DNA of 32,000 bases from assembly GCA_963662715.1 (NCBI GenBank), contig OY759724.1, positions 3,300,001 through 3,332,000 of the forward strand. Direction: 5' to 3'. Below, piece by piece: positions 6,600-18,782 of this stretch. Within the stretch, counting starts at the first letter, position 1; the number at the start of each line of letters is the position of its first letter. The notes under the pieces were generated by a model. That model made no database searches. It was not told where the DNA came from and was given only the letters and a program-made list of their open reading frames with translations. Position numbers and translations under genes: made by a program. The stretch is from Candidatus Omnitrophota bacterium (GTDB lineage Bacteria > Omnitrophota > Gorgyraeia > Zapsychrales > JANLHA01).

Positions 6600-6640
6600 C
6601 CGAGAAGTTGCCCTGTCCCCTTTTATTTTTTTTATCTTTT
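6600..6640 (+). repeat. Intergenic motif copy c: CCGAGAAGTTGCCCTGTCCC followed by a T-rich tract
   Basis: 6600-6619 matches 5426-5445 at 19 of 20 positions. It lies between the transketolase C-subunit stop (6639) and the transaldolase start (6578). Confidence 0.6.
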
Positions 6641-7577
6641 ATTTCCGTTTGACCGCTTTCTTGGCCGCGACCGCGATATCCACATCTTTCAGATGATAGG
6701 CTTTGAGCAGTTCCTGCGGAGAACCGGTTTCCCCGAAACGGTCCTGTACGGCAACCATCTCCATGGGAACAGGACAAAAACGCACAAGCACTTCCGCCAC
6801 AGCGCTGCCCAGCCCGCCGTGGATCTGGTGCTCTTCAGCCGTAACAATCGCCCCGGTTTCGGCTGCCGCCTGCTGGATGGCGGAAATGTCGATCGGCTTA
6901 ATCGTGTGCATATTGATCACACGGGCCTCGATCCCGTCCTTCTTCAATATCTCTGCGGCCTGCAGGGACTCGTAGACCATGAGTCCGCAGGCAATAAGAG
7001 TGACATCCGTGCCTTCTCTCATGACCACAGCCTTGCCGACCTCAAAAGGATCCGACTCTTTGGTCATAACCGGAAAAGGCGCCCGGGACGTTCTCATGTA
7101 AACAGGGCCTTCTGCCTGGCTGATCACGCGCGTGGCTTTGGCGGCTTCAACGGCATCCACCGGGCAGATCACCTGTATATTCGGAAGGACACGCATAATC
7201 GCCAAATCCTCCAGGCATTGCGCGGAAGCGCCGTCTTCCCCGACCGTAATCCCGGCGTGGGAACAAACAAATTTCACATTGCGGTTGTTATAGCAGACGT
7301 CCAGCCGGATCATATCATAAGCGCGGTTGGTCATGAAAACGGCAAAAGAACAGGCAAACGGGATAAAGCCATGGAAACTCAACCCGGCCGCCGTGCCCAC
7401 GACATCCTGTTCGGCTATCCCCAGGTTATAAAATCTCTCGGGAAAAGCTTCCTTAAAATATTCCGCCCGGGTCGCGTCTTCCAAATCACCGGATAAGACC
7501 ACAATTTTCTCATTCGTTTTTCCTAATGCCACCAGTTCATTGCCGAAACCGTCCCTGGTCGGGATCATTTCACTCAT
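6639..7577 (-). CDS. Transketolase, C-terminal (pyrimidine-binding) subunit
   Basis: 312-aa ORF with RDGFGNELVALG..., FYNLGIAEQDVVGTAAGLS and typical Transket_pyr plus C-terminal domains. It sits directly downstream of the N-terminal subunit gene. Confidence 0.9.
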   Translation of the reverse strand: MSEMIPTRDGFGNELVALGKTNEKIVVLSGDLEDATRAEYFKEAFPERFYNLGIAEQDVVGTAAGLSFHGFIPFACSFAVFMTNRAYDMIRLDVCYNNRNVKFVCSHAGITVGEDGASAQCLEDLAIMRVLPNIQVICPVDAVEAAKATRVISQAEGPVYMRTSRAPFPVMTKESDPFEVGKAVVMREGTDVTLIACGLMVYESLQAAEILKKDGIEARVINMHTIKPIDISAIQQAAAETGAIVTAEEHQIHGGLGSAVAEVLVRFCPVPMEMVAVQDRFGETGSPQELLKAYHLKDVDIAVAAKKAVKRK

Positions 7578-7606
7578 CTTTTTCTCCTGTTGACTTCTCT
7601 GTAAAT

Positions 7607-8443
7607 TTAATTCGAATTAACCTGTTCCAATTCCGTTAAAGCAGCCTGCAGCTGGTCCGCCTTCGGCGCCTTGCCGTGCCACTGGGATTTTCCCTCCATG
7701 AAAGACACGCCTTTGCCTTTAACCGTATGGGCGATGATAACAAAAGGCTTTTCCGGGACGCTGTCAAACTGGTCCAGCGCGCTGAACAATTCATGAAAAT
7801 CATGTCCGTTCACCTCAACGGCATGCCACCCGAAACTGTTCCATTTGGATAAAAGCGGCTCAAGGTTCTTGATGTCATTCGTCGGACCGTTTTCCTGGAC
7901 TTTATTATAATCAACGATGGCGCACAAATTATCTAATTTATAATGGGCGGAGGTCATGGCCGCCTCCCAGATGGATCCTTCCTGGATTTCCCCGTCGCCT
8001 AAAATACAGTAGGTCTTAAAATCTTTTTTCAGCATCTTGGCGCCCAGGGCGATGCCGTTGGCCACAGCCAGGCCGTGACCGAGCGACCCAGTATTAAATT
8101 CGACGCCGGGTGTCTTGACATGGACATGCCCCTGCAGAGGGCTGCCGTACTTGCGGTAACGCTTCAGCTCCTCTTCCGGGAAATATCCGCTGTCGGCCAA
8201 AGCCACATAAGCGACCGGAGTGCAGTGCCCCTTGGAAATAATGCATCTGTCCCGGTCCGCCCAGTCAGGGTTATCCGGACGATGGTTCATTTTATAATGA
8301 TACAGCGCGATAAAAATCTCCACGGCCGAAAGAGAACCGCCGGGATGGCCGGAACCGGCAGAATGGACGATTTGTAAAATCTTCTTCCGGAATTCTGTTG
8401 CCTTTTCTTTCAGTTCGTTCATATCAACTCTTTTGGTTGTCAC
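7607..8443 (-). CDS. Transketolase, N-terminal (TPP-binding) subunit
   Basis: 278-aa ORF with SGHPGGSLSAVEI and the GDGEIQEGSIWEA TPP motif. The GTG start at 8443 is preceded by AAGGAGG with 5-nt spacing. Confidence 0.9.
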   Translation of the reverse strand: MTTKRVDMNELKEKATEFRKKILQIVHSAGSGHPGGSLSAVEIFIALYHYKMNHRPDNPDWADRDRCIISKGHCTPVAYVALADSGYFPEEELKRYRKYGSPLQGHVHVKTPGVEFNTGSLGHGLAVANGIALGAKMLKKDFKTYCILGDGEIQEGSIWEAAMTSAHYKLDNLCAIVDYNKVQENGPTNDIKNLEPLLSKWNSFGWHAVEVNGHDFHELFSALDQFDSVPEKPFVIIAHTVKGKGVSFMEGKSQWHGKAPKADQLQAALTELEQVNSN

Positions 8444-8628
8444 AAAATCCTCCTTTACTAAGCAGAAAATCAGCTTATAACTAAACCGTTGACTTGTATC
8501 ATTGTATTACATATTTAAACAGTAAATATAGGGAAAGATGGCCAAGGTGATTGTCATGGAATAAACGTCCATTCTTTTTGAAACAATGATTTTTGCGGAA
8601 AACAGCCGAGACATAAGAAGAAATAAAA

Positions 8629-8702
8629 TGGGCCATGGAGGACTCGAACCTCCCGCCCTCTGATTAAGAGTCAGATGCTCTACCAAGATGAGCTAATGGC
8701 CC
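8629..8702 (-). tRNA. tRNA-Lys (anticodon CTT), 74 nt, CCA not encoded
   Basis: The reverse complement reads GGGCCATTAGCTCATCTTGGTAGAGCATCTGACTCTTAATCAGAGGGCGGGAGGTTCGAGTCCTCCATGGCCCA. It folds as a cloverleaf: 7-bp acceptor stem GGGCCAT/ATGGCCC, D stem GCTC/GAGC, anticodon stem TCTGA/TCAGA with loop CTCTTAA, and T stem GGAGG/CCTCC with loop TTCGAGT. Confidence 0.92.
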
Positions 8703-8945
8703 AAATGTTACAACTTATTTATTTTCAATTTTTTAGCACAAAAGGATCTGGTCATCTTTATTCATAATCATCCAATATGCTAAAATAGCGCTATTTTCAG
8801 AGTCTTTATTATACCTGATATACATAGCGTGTAAATTATTTTTTTCGTATATTTGATAGCCATACTCAGTCCTGTGGCCTCCCCTTATCCCTGATCCACA
8901 GCCCCAATAACAGTCCCTTTACGATAACTGATTTATTATCCTGTC

Positions 8946-9420
8946 TTAATTGAATAAAATAAAGGTAATGATTCCGCCCATGTATCCCAGGAAAACCGGG
9001 AAGCTCATTTTCCGGACATACCAGCCAAAGTCCATTTTCTCCATGCCCATCACGACCACACCCGCCGCAGAGCCGATAACCAGCAAACTTCCCCCTGTCC
9101 CCACACAATAGGCAATGAGCTGCCAAAGCGGCGCGTCTTTGGGATAAACGTTGACATCAAACATCCCCATGGTTGAAGCCGTTAAAGGGACATTATCCAC
9201 CACAGAGGATGTGACACCCAGGAAAGCGACCATGACATTCTTGTTCCGGAACATTGTGTCCAGCACATGAGCGATTCGCAACAGGATGCCGGCTGAATCC
9301 AGAGCCGCAACGGTTAGAAGGATGCCTAAAAAAAACAGAAGACTCGAATAATCGACTTGTTTCAATATGCGCGGGACCTGAAGCCTGGCCTTCTTTTTAT
9401 GGGCTTTGTCCGTATACACC
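8946..9420 (-). pseudogene. nhaD: NhaD-type Na+/H+ antiporter, C-terminal fragment (disrupted by the insertion)
   Basis: The ORF reads (V)YTDKAHKKKARLQVPRILKQVDYSSLLFFLGILLTVAALDSAGIL... It continues colinearly from the N-terminal fragment at 11990-12755 once 9421-11994 is removed. Confidence 0.7.
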
Positions 9421-9804
9421 GATAGTGTCGGAAAACCTATTGTAGAAACAAATCTGTACTCTTATACCGGAAATGACCCCGTAAATTGGATAGATCCTTT
9501 GGGTTTGTTGAAGAGGGATCATCGTTTCTGGGAGAATGTCAAAGAAGGGGTAATGAATAATCTTAAAAAGAAGTATGCTAAGTTTAAGAAAGAGAATCCC
9601 TGTGAAGAAGCTCCGCCAATTGCCGGGGAAGATTTGGAGAGCTCATTAGATAAATTTGCAGAAGCTTTTGCCGATGAATTAACAGAGAAAGAATTCGGTT
9701 TCTTGGGCAGGGGCGTTGAAAAAAATAGTGATGCTGTTAAGGAACGCTTAAAAATTAAATATCCTGATTGGCCATGGGAAGAATGGGACATAATTTTTAA
9801 ATGA
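9406..9804 (+). CDS. Orphan Rhs C-terminal tip: end of the RHS core (..NLYSYTGNDPVNWIDPLGL) followed by a ~98-aa unassigned toxin-like domain
   Basis: The end-of-core signature NLYxYxxNxPxxxxDPxGL lies at 9457-9507. Only about 29 core residues are present, so this is not a full rhs gene. The listed TTG start at 9406 lies outside the element, in antisense nhaD, so the true start is uncertain. An internal ATG at 9553 is preceded by GAAGGGG. Confidence 0.6.
   Translation: MSVYTDSVGKPIVETNLYSYTGNDPVNWIDPLGLLKRDHRFWENVKEGVMNNLKKKYAKFKKENPCEEAPPIAGEDLESSLDKFAEAFADELTEKEFGFLGRGVEKNSDAVKERLKIKYPDWPWEEWDIIFK
9416..9420. repeat. Target-site duplication, left copy (ACACC)
   Basis: ACACC lies immediately outside the left inverted repeat. 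An identical pentamer lies immediately outside the right inverted repeat at 11990-11994. Confidence 0.8.
9421..9437 (+). repeat. Left terminal inverted repeat (IRL)
   Basis: GATAGTGTCGGAAAACC; 14 of 17 match to the reverse complement of 11973-11989. Confidence 0.75.
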
Positions 9805-10178
9805 GAAATAACCTGAGAGAGCACGTTCCAAGGCGGAAACTAATATTGGGATGTTTTATGGGGTTTTGCTTTGGTATTCTAATAATCGTTTGCGGGGATT
9901 TTGTTTCAAATATTCCGAATTATTCAAGCAGCTTTTTCCTGAATTCAATTTATTGGGTATGTACCTATTTAGCCAGTGTGGCGGCAATACTGGCAAAGCT
10001 AATATTAGGAACATTCTTTAATAAATGGTACTCAGTGGTATTAAATTTAATCGCATTGATGTATTTTTCAGTATTGGGAATGTGTTGTGTTGTTCTGTTT
10101 AGAAGGGGTAAAAAAATTTTTATATTTGTTTTCATTGCTCTTCTGGTCGTTCATGGAGCAGGTCTGTATTTATTCTGA
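9801..10178 (+). CDS. Putative cognate immunity protein, small 4-TM membrane protein
   Basis: 125-aa ORF whose ATG overlaps the toxin stop (ATGA at 9801-9804). Four hydrophobic segments lie at roughly aa 13-33, 45-70, 76-99 and 104-125. The position immediately 3' of an Rhs tip is the canonical immunity slot. Confidence 0.55.
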   Translation: MRNNLREHVPRRKLILGCFMGFCFGILIIVCGDFVSNIPNYSSSFFLNSIYWVCTYLASVAAILAKLILGTFFNKWYSVVLNLIALMYFSVLGMCCVVLFRRGKKIFIFVFIALLVVHGAGLYLF

Positions 10179-10292
10179 GATGTCCGTAATTTCAAAAAGG
10201 GATTTTCCTGTAAAATAATATATAAAACAATAATGTCGTCGAGATTATGAAGTATAATAGAGGTGTCCGAATAAAAGAAAGGAGCCTCTTGA

Positions 10293-11888
10293 ATGTTAAA
10301 GAATCCCCAAAACCAAGCCTCATTTTTTGATGCTGAGTATATCTGCGAAGACTTAATCCCTGCCGATAGTTACTACCGCAAGTTCAGGGAAATAGTCTTC
10401 CCGCTCATGGATGAGTTGGATTTTGAATCCATGTATTGTCAGGATAATGGCCGTCCGCCGATCTCGCCGAAGTTGTTGGCCATGGCGTTGCTGTTGCAAT
10501 TCCATAAGAATTTGTCAGATCGGGGAATGGAGCGGGCATGCATGTATGATATTGAGATCAAGTATGCCTTGGGATTAAAACTCAACGAGCGACCGTTCGA
10601 TCATTCAAGTCTGGGAGATTTTAGGAAGCGATTGTATGAGCATGGACAAAGCAAGAGGGTTTTTGACCAGATACTCAACAAGTTGATTGAGGCAGATTTG
10701 ATAGAGCGTGATGAAATTCAGCGGATTGATGCGACGCATATGATTGCTGATATTGCGATACCGACGGTGGTGGCGTTGGTCAAGAAAGGCATTCGTGAAA
10801 TATTAAAACCGTTGAAAGGCCAAAAGCCCGAGTTATACGCTAAGGTTATAAAAAATATCGATGTCGAAGAATATACGCGGGAAAAAGTCAACCAGGCGGA
10901 TGAAGGACGGCTGGATATTGAGAAACGGCAAAGAAAGCTGGTCAAGGTCGTTACCGATGCGCGAAACCTTTTGAGAGAAGTCGAGGATGTTAACATGAGT
11001 CGTGGATTGCGAAAGCGGATTGAATTGCTTCAGAGGATACTGCAGGAGAACGTTAAGGAAGCCGACGAGGGCAAGATTGAGGAACGCAAATATAAAGATA
11101 AACCGCCGGACTTGCTGGTAAGTCCGATTGACGAAGACGCGCGGTATGGCGCAAAGTCGGATACAAAAAGATTTATGGGATACAAGGCAAATGTGACAGA
11201 GAGTGTGAAAAATCGGTTGATCACAAATATTGAAGTGATGCCCGGAAACAGACGGGATGGTGAGCCGACAGTGAAGATGGTGGTGGAGCAGAAACTGAAC
11301 GGATTAGTCCCTAAGAAGCTGGTAGGAGACGCGGCGTACGCGGACGGGATGTATAGAAAATTGCTCAAAGATAATGAAACCCTGCTGGTCGCACCGTTAA
11401 GAAAAGTTAATGAAAGTGCACAAAAAATTTACCCCAAAAGCATGTTTTATTACGATGAGAAAACAGGAACAGTAACGTGTCCGCAAGGCGTAAAAACAAA
11501 AACATGTTTTGAAGATCGTCGCCATGGGTTAAAGCAATTTCATTTTCCGATGAGCGCGTGCAATCAGTGTGGCGTTCAGAAAGAGTGTACAAAAGCAAAA
11601 GAAGGACGCCGGACGATAGGGATCAGTATCTTTAATAAAGAGCTGCGCGAAGCCGAAGTATACAACGAAACAGAACAATTCAAAAAGGACATGAAGCTGC
11701 GTCCACCGATTGAAGGAAAGCTGTCGGAGTTGACGCGGTATCACGGCTTAAGGCGCGCACGATATCGAAGGTTATATAAAGTGCGGCTTCAGGGTTATTT
11801 TACAGCGGCTGCGGTGAACATCAAGCGGTGGTTCAAGCTGATTATCGAAGGAATAGCAAGGCACCCGGAGGTTGCGATGGGCTTTTAG
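10293..11888 (+). CDS. IS1182-family-like DDE transposase
   Basis: 531 aa. The N-terminus matches the InsH/DUF772-like pattern (FFDAEYICEDLIPADSYYRKFREIV). It has a DDE region (RIDATHMIADI..., VGDAAYADG), a Cys-rich segment (TCPQG...CNQCGVQKEC) and a C-terminal YHGLRRARYRRLYKVRLQGYFTAAAVNIKR. SD AAAGGAG lies 8 nt upstream of the ATG. Confidence 0.8.
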   Translation: MLKNPQNQASFFDAEYICEDLIPADSYYRKFREIVFPLMDELDFESMYCQDNGRPPISPKLLAMALLLQFHKNLSDRGMERACMYDIEIKYALGLKLNERPFDHSSLGDFRKRLYEHGQSKRVFDQILNKLIEADLIERDEIQRIDATHMIADIAIPTVVALVKKGIREILKPLKGQKPELYAKVIKNIDVEEYTREKVNQADEGRLDIEKRQRKLVKVVTDARNLLREVEDVNMSRGLRKRIELLQRILQENVKEADEGKIEERKYKDKPPDLLVSPIDEDARYGAKSDTKRFMGYKANVTESVKNRLITNIEVMPGNRRDGEPTVKMVVEQKLNGLVPKKLVGDAAYADGMYRKLLKDNETLLVAPLRKVNESAQKIYPKSMFYYDEKTGTVTCPQGVKTKTCFEDRRHGLKQFHFPMSACNQCGVQKECTKAKEGRRTIGISIFNKELREAEVYNETEQFKKDMKLRPPIEGKLSELTRYHGLRRARYRRLYKVRLQGYFTAAAVNIKRWFKLIIEGIARHPEVAMGF

Positions 11889-11972
11889 AAGATTGAAGGG
11901 CGTAAAATAAGTGCGCCCCAAAAATAATGCTCTTTGAAACTGGACCAAAAGTCCAACGGCGGAAAAATACCG

Positions 11973-11989
11973 GGTTTTCAGACGGTATC
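11973..11989 (-). repeat. Right terminal inverted repeat (IRR)
   Basis: The reverse complement reads GATACCGTCTGAAAACC; see IRL. Confidence 0.75.
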
Positions 11990-11994
11990 ACACC
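11990..11994. repeat. Target-site duplication, right copy (ACACC)
   Basis: Identical to 9416-9420 and directly abuts IRR. Confidence 0.8.
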
Positions 11995-12755
11995 CATAAT
12001 AACCCTAATCCCAATAAAACGCTCAGATAAGGCGGCAGATCGAAAACGGCTTTTAAAACAGGGACCAGCAATAAAGCACCCGTCCCTATCAAAAAGACCG
12101 TATTGGTTTCAACGGAGCTGACGCACCGCACTGGCATAAGCCCCTTGGCGTTTTTGCCCTTGATCCGGAAAGAGAAATACAACAAAGGAAGCAATACGCT
12201 CACGAGACTGGAAAAAAACACTTTTTGAATCACCGCAGCAGATGTTAGATATCCTTTTATCCACAACATTGTTGTTGTCACATCCCCTATAGGCGTCCAC
12301 GCCCCGCCGGCATTCGCCGCGACAATAATCATGCTGGCGAAGGTCAGGCGCTCTGCTGTTTTCGGCAGGAATTGATGCAGAAGCGTCATCATAATGATAG
12401 ACGTTGTCACAAAAGCGGAAAGGAAGAACGTCATGAACGTGGTCAGCCAAAGCAGGGACAAATGGCTCCTGGCCTGAATCAGGCGGGAAATAACGCAAAA
12501 GCCGTGATAAGAATCAATAATTTCCACGATCGTCATCACCCCCATCAAGAAAAAGAATATCTGTGCGATATCCGAGACATGGTCATTCAGCTGCTGGAGC
12601 ACCACGGCATCATGATGCCAGCTGTCGATTAAAACAATGCTCCAGCAAAAGAAAGCGAGCAGTATCGCGACGGCAGATTTATTCACTTCAAACTTCTGTT
12701 CGAAAGAAATAAAAACATAGCCGCCGATAAAAACAATTAAGAGGATGATATCCAT
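11990..12755 (-). pseudogene. nhaD: NhaD-type Na+/H+ antiporter, N-terminal fragment (255 codons, then a stop created by the IS end)
   Basis: The ORF reads MDIILLIVFIGGYVFISFEQKFEVNKSAVAILL...LGLGLLWV and then hits a TGA formed at the junction with the element. It is a multi-TM permease pattern. Confidence 0.7.
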
Positions 12756-16223: not shown

Positions 16224-18782
16224 ATGGTCAAGACTATGAACGCGACCAAGACATATTTTCTGTCTGTTCTTAAATCATGCCGCTGCCGGGGTTTTCTGCT
16301 GGCCTGGATTATTGTTTCTGCCATCGGCATCCACATGCGGCTTTATCCGTTAAGACACCATACTTCGGATGAAGTCAAGGATAAGGCTTCGCTTTTGGTC
16401 ATCACCCAGATCAAACAAACCGTCCAGAAGGCGGTGGCCGCCAACTTTCCGCAGCTCAGTGCCGTCGAAAAAGAGTTGCTCATCCAAAAACAGTTCAACC
16501 GGATCCTGCGCACGGAAAAAGCCAATGTCAGGAAAAGCATTCACGAGTTAAGCCGCAAACTTCAGGAACAGGACCCGGAACAAAGCCCGTTTTACCTCCT
16601 CGCTTCCGACTCATTTTATTATTACGACTTAACAAAAAACATCCTGAAAACCGGCCGGATCAGCGACAAAATCAAAGGGAGCAAATATTATAATAACAAA
16701 ATGAACGCCCCGCACGGGTACTGGGAACCGTTCAACCTGCATCCCTATACCGGAGCCCTGATACACCGCTGCCTGTCCCGGATAAAACCCGGGATTCCGC
16801 TTATGTCCTCGGTCAGCGTTACGCCTTTAATCATTATGTGTATCAGCCTCCTGCCTTTTATCTGGATATGCCGGCACCTCCAGTGTTCTCTGCCCGGGAC
16901 TATCACAGCCGCGCTTTTTCTCGTCTCCGCGCCCATCTTTCTTAAACGCAGCATGTACGGCTGGTATGATAACGACCCTTACAGCATCCTGTTTCCGCTG
17001 ACCATCCTGTCTGTGGCCTTTTCAGGATTCAAAAGCATTCAGGAGCAGCGGCCCTGGCTCCCTCCCGCGCTTTTCTGCGGTTTGAGCATCTGGCTCTACT
17101 CCCTTTTCTGGCACGGGTGGGTTTTCCTGGAAGCCCTGCTTTTTGCCGGAGGGGTTCTTTACGGGCTTTATACTTTATTTTTCCTTAAACAAAGGTCCCG
17201 GGCCAAACGCCTGTTTCATTTTTTTACGATCGTCATCTCAACCAGCTTTCTGGGGGTGAGCCTCTTCTTCGGATGGCGGGAATTTTTCATATTATTTCAG
17301 GAAGGCCTTGCGGCATTAAAACATTTCTGGCAGCCTTCCTTCTCTTTATGGCCGGACCTGTACATTGCAGTCGGGGAACTGAAAAGGGCAAGCCTTCCTT
17401 TCCTCGTTGAACTGTGCGGAGGATATCTGTTTTGCCTTCTGGCTTTTCTGGGGTTGGGGAGCTGTGTCTGGCAGCTTATCACAAAGAAAACAGACTTTCC
17501 CGGAGAAAACATTTTTCTGATTCTTTTCGTGGGCGTGATCGTTCCCATGACCCTAGGGGCGCAAAGGTTTGCCCTGCTCTGCATCGTCCCCGCATCTCTA
17601 CTGGCAGCGGTGGGGATCAAACAGGCCCTTTGCTTTATCAGGCAAGCCTGTCTGCGGCTGCCCCGGACAGCACTGCCCGTTCAAGCCGTCCAGACCATAC
17701 TCACATCCCTGGTTCTGCTGGCATTGGCCTGTTTCCCTGTGGCCCGCGCCTATCACAACACGGAATCTCTGCTGAACCCCATCTTCAACGCGACCTGGGA
17801 CCAGGCCTTGACCCGGGTTAAGAACGGCACTCCGGCTGACAGCATCATCAATACCTGGTGGCCGCCCGGTCATTTTATAAAAGCCATCGCTGAACGCCGG
17901 GTCACGTTCGACGGCGCAACCATCAACCAGCCGCAGGCCTACTGGCTGGCGAATATCCTCCTGGCCGAGGATGAAGATACCGCCCTGGGTCTGTTGCGCA
18001 TGTTAAACAATTCCTCTAATGAGGCCACGGACTACCTGCTGAGTACCGGGATGAAGTTATCCGAGGCTGTCGCGACGCTTCATGAAATTTCCAAACTTGA
18101 TAAAGACCGCGCACGGGATGATTTAAAGGATAAGTTGAACGAAGTCCAGCAGACGCATTTACTGAATTTAACGCATAGCCGGCCGCCGCCCAGTTATCTC
18201 TTGATCTATAATGAGCTCATTGAAGCTCACATCCTTATCAGTTTTACGGGACGGTGGGACTTTCAGGAAGCCGAAAACATCAATGAAGATCCCGCCCGGA
18301 TGAAAAAGGTCCCGCGGGCCGGGTCAAAAGAATACATCTCTTTTCTCTGGGGAATTGCCGGGGGATACCCCCGCTACAGCGGCATCCTCAGCCCTGTCCA
18401 TTCAGAAGAGAACAAAGTGCTCTTCTCAGACAATGTCCTCTGCCAAACAGACACCAAAGAATGCCTGATCAATTCTCCGACTTACGGCAAAGGCGTCCCC
18501 AAGTATATTCACTTCCTGGACAGCGGAAAAATCGTCGAGAAAGAACTTCCCAACGCAAACCTCAATTACTCTGTCTTATTGAGTCCAACGGAAAGCGGCT
18601 ATCAGTGCGCGTTAATGGACCATAACCTGGCCCGGTCCCTGCTGATGCGGCTCTATTTTTTCAAAGGCGCCGGTTTCCGGGATATCAAACCCTTCCTGCA
18701 GACAAAAGACCTCACCACCCGCACCCAGATTTCCGTCTATGAAGTCGATTGGAATGCTTATCTGAGCCGCACGGCCCCTTAA
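16224..18782 (+). CDS. STT3/AglB/PglB-type oligosaccharyltransferase homologue with non-canonical WWPPG
   Basis: 852 aa with a polytopic N-terminal half. SDSFYYYD (D at 16608-16610) resembles the first acidic motif. YDND (16965-16976) resembles the SYDNE motif of STT3. TWWPPGHFIKAIAERRVTFDGATINQPQAYWLANILL (WWPPGH at 17856-17873) is colinear with yeast STT3 [35 protein letters not shown]. Confidence 0.6.
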   Translation: MVKTMNATKTYFLSVLKSCRCRGFLLAWIIVSAIGIHMRLYPLRHHTSDEVKDKASLLVITQIKQTVQKAVAANFPQLSAVEKELLIQKQFNRILRTEKANVRKSIHELSRKLQEQDPEQSPFYLLASDSFYYYDLTKNILKTGRISDKIKGSKYYNNKMNAPHGYWEPFNLHPYTGALIHRCLSRIKPGIPLMSSVSVTPLIIMCISLLPFIWICRHLQCSLPGTITAALFLVSAPIFLKRSMYGWYDNDPYSILFPLTILSVAFSGFKSIQEQRPWLPPALFCGLSIWLYSLFWHGWVFLEALLFAGGVLYGLYTLFFLKQRSRAKRLFHFFTIVISTSFLGVSLFFGWREFFILFQEGLAALKHFWQPSFSLWPDLYIAVGELKRASLPFLVELCGGYLFCLLAFLGLGSCVWQLITKKTDFPGENIFLILFVGVIVPMTLGAQRFALLCIVPASLLAAVGIKQALCFIRQACLRLPRTALPVQAVQTILTSLVLLALACFPVARAYHNTESLLNPIFNATWDQALTRVKNGTPADSIINTWWPPGHFIKAIAERRVTFDGATINQPQAYWLANILLAEDEDTALGLLRMLNNSSNEATDYLLSTGMKLSEAVATLHEISKLDKDRARDDLKDKLNEVQQTHLLNLTHSRPPPSYLLIYNELIEAHILISFTGRWDFQEAENINEDPARMKKVPRAGSKEYISFLWGIAGGYPRYSGILSPVHSEENKVLFSDNVLCQTDTKECLINSPTYGKGVPKYIHFLDSGKIVEKELPNANLNYSVLLSPTESGYQCALMDHNLARSLLMRLYFFKGAGFRDIKPFLQTKDLTTRTQISVYEVDWNAYLSRTAP

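Follow-up and report, generated by a model that had tools for sequence, protein, structure and literature searches.

The window analysed here is a stretch of 32,000 nucleotides from a Candidatus Omnitrophota assembly (GCA_963662715.1, contig OY759724.1, positions 3,300,001 to 3,332,000 of the forward strand). Coordinates given without a locus name are positions within it. In this window nhaD, a minus-strand gene for an NhaD antiporter, is split by a transposon of 2569 bp (9421-11989) that carries a putative toxin tip, a presumed immunity gene and a transposase gene, all on the plus strand.

Insertion of the element into nhaD

The 3' part of nhaD (8946-9420, minus strand; YTDKAHKKK… to the stop codon) and its 5' part (11990-12755, minus strand; MDIILL… to …LGLGLLWV) were delimited by means of the list of open reading frames (ORFs), in silico excision, NhaD models and alignment. 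As present, the 5' ORF continues for one extra sense codon and ends at a TGA stop within the right inverted repeat of the element. An earlier sequence-only reading had described terminal inverted repeats, a 5-bp target duplication, an element of 2569 bp and a gene restorable by excision, and all four were confirmed. Of the 17 bases at 9421-9437 (GATAGTGTCGGAAAACC), 14 are the same in the reverse complement of 11973-11989 (GATACCGTCTGAAAACC). Both repeats are abutted on the outside by ACACC, which at 9416-9420 forms the last 5 bp of the nhaD 3' part and is found again by direct reading at 11990-11994. Deletion of 9421-11994 joins …LGLGLLWV to YTDKAHKKK… in a single minus-strand ORF of 411 aa, and the uninterrupted site would read …GTATACACCCATAAT….

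Comparison with NhaD profiles and alignment with six homologues showed the reconstructed ORF to be colinear with NhaD through the junction, so that its earlier designation as one antiporter gene held. TIGR00775 is matched without interruption, residues 4-409 aligning with model positions 5-412 of 420 (E = 8e-98), with a score of 328 bits, below the strict equivalog cut-off of 577, and NF038006 (NhaD_1) is passed with 110.6 bits against a cut-off of 80. The restored protein is 47-58% identical to annotated intact NhaD proteins over 97-100% of the length. In the alignment with six intact NhaD proteins the junction is gapless, and W254, T257 and D258 are invariant. The statement that both halves of the gene are otherwise intact needs qualifying for a conserved LDN triplet, which is present in all six aligned homologues and absent from the restored window protein (…FLSAF---VTTSI…); the gene is therefore not flawless. 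The loss corresponds to an in-frame 9-bp deletion within a conserved motif at about 12405-12413 (minus strand), near NhaD residue 115. Given this deletion, the antiporter may have been impaired before the insertion or may have decayed after it.

Taken alone, the inverted repeats do not rise above chance, with 46 inverted pairs of similar quality within the same 3.5 kb. What lends them significance is their placement, right beside the duplication and precisely where a restorable gene is broken, together with the recurrence of these ends in other genomes. The element moved into nhaD as one unit, generating the 5-bp duplication; in this genome nhaD is knocked out and the tip and immunity pair is stranded. 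An assembly chimera, or two successive unrelated events mimicking one insertion, would have to reproduce by accident an exact duplication and a precisely restored reading frame, and the same architecture is present in independent assemblies from several sources. The source is one contig of 3.36 Mb; nothing specific was found in favour of such an origin, which is judged extremely improbable. A recent insertion is plausible, since the duplication is perfect, the transposase has its full length and the ends do not depart from the family consensus. An empty-site allele was not found, the best intact NhaD among the homologues being only 56-58% identical.

Organization of the element

The left terminal inverted repeat (IRL, 9421-9437, plus strand) starts with 16 nt, GATAGTGTCGGAAAAC, which double as codons for D-S-V-G-K. 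It opens a conserved left-end module (9421-9507, plus strand), recognised from relatives and from TIGR03696, which encodes DSVGKPIVETNLYSYTGNDPVNWIDPLGL and contains an Rhs core-end motif of the PxxxxDPxGL type. The match to TIGR03696 (Rhs_assc_core) is partial (model positions 57-76) and scores 26.9 bits against a cut-off of 32.5, because only the last 20 model positions are present. Alignment with Rhs-type C-termini places the core-end motif (…NLYxYxxNxPxxxxDPxGL) directly before the variable tip, in the form ETNLYSYTGNDPVNWIDPLGL at 9442-9507. An upstream Rhs ORF could continue into the module, and in-frame continuity with Rhs cores is seen in relatives. A matrix scan (see below) further located in it the element's own copy of the preferred target, aatctgtactcttatacc|GGAAATGACCCCGTAAAT (9451-9486, plus strand), with the predicted insertion point after 9468.

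The variable C-terminal tip, a helical putative toxin of about 98 aa, occupies 9508-9804 (plus strand). Its stop codon overlaps the ATG of the next ORF (ATGA), a presumed immunity gene (9801-10178, plus strand) for a protein of 125 aa with about four membrane-spanning segments by hydropathy. In searches of Pfam and NCBIfam the immunity ORF had no match, and the tip none apart from the core-end motif. The G+C content of this cargo is 35.9%, compared with 48.5% for the window. A spacer (10179-10292, plus strand) leads from the cargo to the transposase gene, and homology to relatives restarts within it, at 10209-10278 depending on the relative.

The transposase gene (10293-11888, plus strand) encodes a full-length IS1182-family DDE transposase of 531 aa. 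It was assigned by NF033551 (transpos_IS1182), which scores 342.3 bits (cut-off 270) and aligns residues 5-516 with model positions 3-488 of 488, and by the Pfam domains DUF772, DDE_Tnp_1 and DDE_Tnp_1_6, and has at least 400 homologues with E <= 1e-50. The element ends with the right terminal inverted repeat (IRR, 11973-11989, minus strand), which reads GGTTTTCAGACGGTATC on the plus strand. Promoter and terminator scans gave background level only.

Related copies and the position of the left end

Relatives were collected in three ways. A scan of species-representative genomes yielded L001, a locus in a Candidatus Omnitrophota metagenome-assembled genome (MAG) whose transposase is 79% identical; a metagenome scan yielded ten loci (L002-L011); and context look-ups of transposase homologues yielded L012-L036. 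Many of the sampled loci (L013-L022, L023-L032) show one and the same insertion in related populations. By their labels, MAGs with copies belong to Omnitrophota and Firmicutes/Bacillota, and one labelled Thermodesulfobacteriota holds a close homologue of the transposase. The closest NhaD and transposase relatives carry the labels Elusimicrobia and Omnitrophota. Look-ups of exact protein sequences, made for the window transposase, the immunity ORF and the protein P0001, matched no record.

At every untruncated locus with its left side on the contig, the 16-nt left end was found 0.7-1.4 kb upstream of the transposase ATG. It is identical in L001, L003, L004, L009, L012-L015, L017-L027 and L030-L036 and has one difference in L008, and this identity persists though the transposases of the relatives are only 62-90% identical. 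The right ends, carrying GGTTYTYMGACGGTATC, are near-identical as well, even at 62-64% transposase identity; the IRR itself is identical in L006 and L013-L034 and has 1-4 changes in other relatives. Perfect 5-bp duplications enclose nine copies: ACACC in the window, ATGTT at L001 and at L012, ACGTC at L013, ATGTC at L023, AACAT at L033, ATGTG at two copies in L034, and CGTTA at L035. The elements measure 2456-3155 bp and contain two passenger ORFs. At each of these copies, the window one and eight others, a single duplication encloses tip, immunity gene and transposase, which bears out the earlier description of the element as a cargo-carrying insertion sequence (IS).

The sequence-only reading had also asked whether the true left end might lie further inside. 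One rival explanation would be that a plain 1.8-kb IS1182 element, with its left end near 10180-10290, mobilised neighbouring DNA by way of a chance repeat-like sequence at 9421. It is true that the region holds dozens of chance pairs as good as the inverted repeat by itself, and that the sequence at about 10170-10207 has a weak gapped similarity to the right end. Against this, the 9421 end is exact in every untruncated relative, with different cargo and matching 5-bp duplications, and no sequence is conserved at the putative inner end. Homology between window and relatives covers the first 85-95 nt (72-75% identity), is lacking over the cargo and returns 15-85 nt before the ATG; together with the recurring 9421 end, these three zones leave no place for an inner left end. 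A candidate end near 10179 was rejected, as the weak gapped similarity between spacer and right end is not reproduced in relatives. An origin from a shorter element with a chance outer repeat is thus barely conceivable, and the left end is placed at 9421.

Two further features of the copies were recorded. The right end contains a subterminal hairpin, GGAC-CAAAA-GTCC (11942-11954, plus strand), read from the sequence about 35 nt inside the end. It is kept in L001, L002 and L006, has one arm mismatch in L003 and L012, and is absent from the clade at 62-64% identity. At L005 (479-1471), where the transposase is 62% identical, the cargo upstream of it is replaced by an ORF that by its translation resembles an IS30 transposase. 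The left repeat was not found at this locus, so another IS has probably disrupted the copy.

Variable tips behind a translated left end

In translation, all copies begin with D(S)VGK, followed by 5-12 variable residues and NLYxY(T/A/V)xN(N/D)PxNxxDPxGL, and then diverge completely. The 54 C-termini linked to a left end fall into 30 tip clusters with no detectable mutual similarity. In relatives, each tip is followed by a small ORF. Synonymous positions of the DSVGK codons are invariant while neighbouring codons vary, as expected if these 16 nt are constrained both as a transposase binding site and as coding sequence. From these comparisons, the cargo is no accidental passenger: a translated left end joined to a variable Rhs tip and immunity cassette is the conserved layout shared by the entire clade.

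In the window the tip is joined to no Rhs core. The frame upstream of 9421 consists of 13 codons of nhaD antisense, and no Rhs gene is present among the ORFs checked in the 32 kb; fusion of the tip to an Rhs/YD shell was seen in relatives, where the proteins carry TEN_YD-shell domains. With only these 13 codons upstream, the window tip is probably inert, while the membrane-protein gene may still be expressed. The 125-aa membrane protein occupies the position that the small ORF has after the tip in relatives, and this position, the ATGA overlap and analogy suggest that it confers immunity. One may speculate that a membrane-type immunity partner hints at a target in the cell envelope.

A word-based homologue search with the tip recovered only the tip itself. 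A full HMMER scan revealed a small family of unannotated members at the ends of Rhs-type fragments, with the motifs PxIPGK, AEAFAD and HPDWPWxxW. AlphaFold2 modelled the tip with a mean confidence (pLDDT) of 56.8 from the single sequence and 79.7 with the alignment, and Foldseek of the model against the PDB gave no match better than E = 4.8. One homologue of the window tip, P0129, starts with …GVFRRYHVSNNPINLVDPYGL, in which VFRRYH is the translation of the element's right repeat. The family of the window tip therefore also occurs as a displaced tip directly downstream of another element.

In-frame insertion into Rhs genes, nesting and arrays

Almost all relatives are found at Rhs genes. At L001, L012, L013-L022, L023-L032, L034 and L036, an Rhs/YD-shell gene contains the element or immediately precedes it, both having the same orientation. 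The gene order Rhs/YD-shell gene, small ORF, transposase gene, small ORFs recurs, and is also found (gene order only) on the contig with P0012. The junction with the Rhs gene always falls on one codon boundary and is always in frame (…DLYGYV|DSVGK…, …NLYGYV|…, …NFYAYV|…, …NFYVYV|…). To the right of the elements the old frame continues with xN(D/N)PxNxxDPxGL and then a displaced tip, so excision in silico rebuilds an intact Rhs core end. For L001, the right flank reads ATGTT-CTCAATGATCCG…, translated (V)LNDPVNGVDPEGLVFETPSDY, and removal of the copy gives back DLYGYV-LNDPVNGVDPEGL in frame. Downstream in L001, L012, L034 and L036, displaced tip and immunity pairs are present. An exhaustive HMMER scan added about 25 protein fragments with an …NLYxYV-DSVGKP… junction after Rhs repeats.

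The NLYxY(T/A/V) motif within the element is itself hit. L008 has two left ends 57 bp apart (L008:32-104), in L006 (405-470) the right end of one element abuts the GNNPVN… part of another, and in P0142, P0144 and P0151 left ends are nested at NLYxY(T/V/A). Some Rhs proteins contain two consecutive DSVGK…NLYxY segments. The Rhs gene at L034 holds an array of the form IRL…IRR|ATGTG|IRL…IRR|ATGTG|older left end, with exact 5-bp spacers.

The L034 array (L034:293-5760; ERZ25039512 contig_56649, 1.9 Mb) consists of two identical 2720-bp elements head to tail. The third, older left end encodes DTVGK and has one IRL mismatch. The array may have arisen either by repeated insertion at a regenerated target or from an (IS)2-type dimer. 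A further identical copy on the same contig, at a non-Rhs site, is L033 with its AACAT duplication.

Resemblance of the nhaD site to the Rhs target

Across 16 distinct left flanks, the six bases next to the element follow the consensus T(14) A(15) Y(14) G(10) T(11) N. For a longer description of the target, a matrix of 36 positions was built from 15 left and 12 right flanks of the other loci only, and the window, emptied of the element, was scanned on both strands. AATCTGTATGGGTACGTCCAAAACAATCCAATCAAT is an example of such a 36-bp core-end target. The nhaD site scored 10.9 bits (background mean -21.8, sd 8.1), ranking 4 of 58,782, in the orientation used. With a matrix from Rhs-type sites only it ranked 3, its right half (…CATAATAACCC, resembling xxx-AAY-RAY-CC) contributing most. 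In the intact window the top score, 25.4 bits, goes to the motif within the element that ends at 9468, in agreement with the nested copies. Since selection for an Rhs fusion is impossible at nhaD, the resemblance of this site argues that the insertion machinery reads the target and that nhaD served as a pseudo-site. To judge from these comparisons, the nhaD copy is almost certainly an off-target insertion of an active-looking element.

These data also bear on a simpler explanation, an ordinary passenger-carrying IS that inserts more or less at random, with Rhs copies predominating through selection of in-frame fusions and homologous recombination between Rhs genes. Perfect duplications do flank some non-Rhs insertions (the window copy, L033), the 6-nt flanks of non-Rhs insertions match the consensus loosely, hybrid flanks point to recombination between copies, and many sampled loci represent one insertion across related populations (L013-L022, L023-L032). 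Random insertion does not account for a site that is not selectable for an Rhs fusion and yet ranks 3rd-4th of 58,782 in the matching orientation. Nor does it account for independent Rhs insertions that differ in duplication and neighbouring codons and still share one codon boundary, or for the insertions into the same motif inside other elements and the exact 5-bp spacers of the L034 array. Random insertion followed by selection is thus considered unlikely, though less so than the two alternatives discussed above. Homing of the element to the Rhs core end is preferred.

Proposed mechanism

The window element is very probably an intact 2569-bp transposon of the IS1182 family, belonging to a clade that swaps toxins at Rhs core ends, and its position in nhaD an off-target one. 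At the level of the family, comparison with about 20 relatives makes a transposon that homes to the Rhs core end, inserts in frame and swaps toxins a well supported model. Members of the clade would be laid out as an IRL read as DSVGK, some 70 nt that complete the NLYxYTxNxPxNxIDPxGL core-end and cleavage motif, the tip, the immunity gene, the transposase gene and the IRR. The transposase would join both repeats to a 5-bp staggered cut, made preferentially and in one orientation in DNA encoding the …NLYxYV|xN(D/N)P… end of the Rhs shell. The target is probably read by the transposase itself, or by its complex with left-end DNA, through recognition of about 20-36 bp encoding NLYxYV-xN(D/N)P.

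After insertion, the host Rhs ORF would run in frame through the IRL into the incoming tip, gaining 14-17 extra residues and a fresh DPxGL cleavage motif, and the incoming immunity gene would protect the cell. The resulting chimeric Rhs proteins are expected to be cleaved, delivered and toxic. The resident tip and immunity pair would be pushed downstream to become an orphan. As the target motif is also part of the element's own left end, later arrivals could insert into earlier ones and so build arrays. The window copy would have missed an Rhs gene and hit a look-alike of the Rhs target on the antisense strand of nhaD, leaving a tip without Rhs shell and a broken nhaD.

Several points weigh against this mechanism. 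Transposition, toxicity, immunity and autocleavage of the chimeras are deduced from sequence comparison. Duplication of the NLYxY segment makes the Rhs core end 14-17 residues longer, and tolerance of this extension is presumed. The window tip belongs to no recognisable fold or family by Foldseek against the PDB or by Pfam. Non-Rhs sites fit the short consensus loosely (TAACAT at L033, TCGTTA at L035, CACAGT at L003), so selection, or sampling via homologous contigs, could account for part of the Rhs bias. Flanks are unequal at L003, L004, L025, L031, L032 and L036, probably through recombination between copies, and these loci are not direct evidence of insertion. Among them, L025 (3108-5763) and L032 (834-3489) have ATGTC…ACCAA and L031 (27-2682) has ACCAA…ATGTC around the same element; such reciprocal flanks indicate that, within one population, two copies took part in homologous recombination or an inversion.

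At L004 (1100-1200), a SecA-like gene ends just 18 nt before the element; these 18 nt (GACCTGTATATATATGTT, a potential DLYIYV) make up the whole left flank, and the right flank continues an Rhs core end. This locus may be either a recombinant or an insertion into a short remnant.

Comparison with known systems

Plain IS elements of the IS1182 family are about 1.3-2 kb long and contain the transposase gene only. The term transporter IS (tIS), a concept of ISfinder, denotes an IS-like element with passenger genes inside its inverted repeats. The clade described here shares with the IS1182 family the transposase profile, above the NCBIfam cut-off, the terminal inverted repeats and a flanking direct repeat (5 bp, at nine copies). 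The compact size of a transposase-only element was not found, as the elements measure 2456-3155 bp and carry two passenger ORFs; they are therefore to be classed as IS1182-derived transposons or tIS and not as plain IS. With a tIS the clade has in common a single transposase, short terminal repeats, passengers unrelated to transposition, one repeat pair and one duplication. It differs in that the passengers form an exchangeable tip and immunity cassette, whose tip has no start of its own and needs in-frame fusion with the target gene. We know of no tIS whose passenger depends on such a fusion.

Tn7 inserts at attTn7, and IS30 targets its own ends and forms head-to-tail dimers. Like these, the clade shows oriented insertion at a defined sequence, look-alike pseudo-sites and, at L034, a head-to-tail array with a short spacer. 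Unlike them, it has no accessory targeting protein, its target lies inside coding sequence and its insertion preserves the frame.

Target duplications in the IS1182 family range from 2 to 60 bp, a range quoted from ISfinder (PMC7335449) that includes the 5 bp found here. Unusual target choice also has a parallel in the family: IS1272 targets inverted-repeat structures and leaves no duplication (PMC5678879). The clade stands apart from the family and from IS1272 in its translated left end, its constant 5-bp duplication and a target that is a protein-coding motif and not a stem-loop. It further differs from the family in some 0.9-1.4 kb of passenger DNA between left end and transposase gene, and the nearest annotated plasmid-borne transposases are only about 30% identical.

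In the model of Rhs C-terminal displacement, new tips are acquired by homologous recombination at a conserved motif. As in that model, here too a new tip and immunity gene replace the old ones at the core-end motif and displaced pairs accumulate downstream. The difference is that here transposon ends and 5-bp duplications delimit the cassette, which comes with a transposase of its own. Displacement of this kind and orphan toxin and immunity modules are known from Rhs and contact-dependent inhibition (CDI) loci (for example PMC3150448, PMC3482391). In the examined part of PMC3482391, a large survey of polymorphic toxins, 'transposase' is used a single time, on another matter, and the terms 'insertion sequence' and 'transposon' are absent. 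A literature search of incomplete coverage, and hence no proof of novelty, found no published account of such a transposon. The family of elements, which combines features of a tIS with Rhs tip displacement, is apparently undescribed.

Other genes of the window

A tRNA-Lys(CTT) gene (8628-8703, minus strand) lies just downstream of nhaD, next to a split transketolase, recognised by reading the translations, with ORFs for an N-terminal subunit of 278 aa and a C-terminal subunit of 312 aa (6639-8703 including the tRNA gene, minus strand). Transketolase and tRNA-Lys, like the transaldolase and the Na/Ca exchanger encoded elsewhere in the window, represent housekeeping context. On the other side of the element, an ORF of 852 aa (16224-18782, plus strand) matches the N-terminal domain of STT3 oligosaccharyltransferases (Pfam PF02516, E = 2e-21), and near it are a TPR protein and large ORFs without family matches. 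This region may be a protein-glycosylation locus.

Implications

New C-terminal tips of Rhs and CdiA proteins, and the arrays of orphans behind them, are usually put down to homologous recombination at a conserved motif, and the vehicle that brings new toxin cassettes into genomes is generally left open. It is rather probable, with less confidence than for the window element itself, that the copies collected here belong to a widespread and unrecognised class of transposons, which have a translated terminal repeat, home in an oriented and in-frame manner on Rhs core-end codons and deliver toxin and immunity cassettes. If so, a transposon with an in-frame end, a tip and immunity cargo and core-end targeting would be that vehicle. 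It would explain the duplicated NLYxY-DSVGK junctions in many Rhs fragments, the build-up of displaced tips and the spread of tips across phyla. For annotation, YVDSVGKP in Rhs proteins would flag a transposon junction.

Among single-protein DDE transposases, targeting of a specific sequence as proposed here would be rare; the target measures about 36 bp and the ends about 17 bp, and in-frame tagging would be a possible use. Insertion into an Rhs gene would amount to a natural, programmed in-frame gene fusion by a DDE transposon, and diversification of polymorphic toxins driven by a transposase would stand beside homologous recombination.

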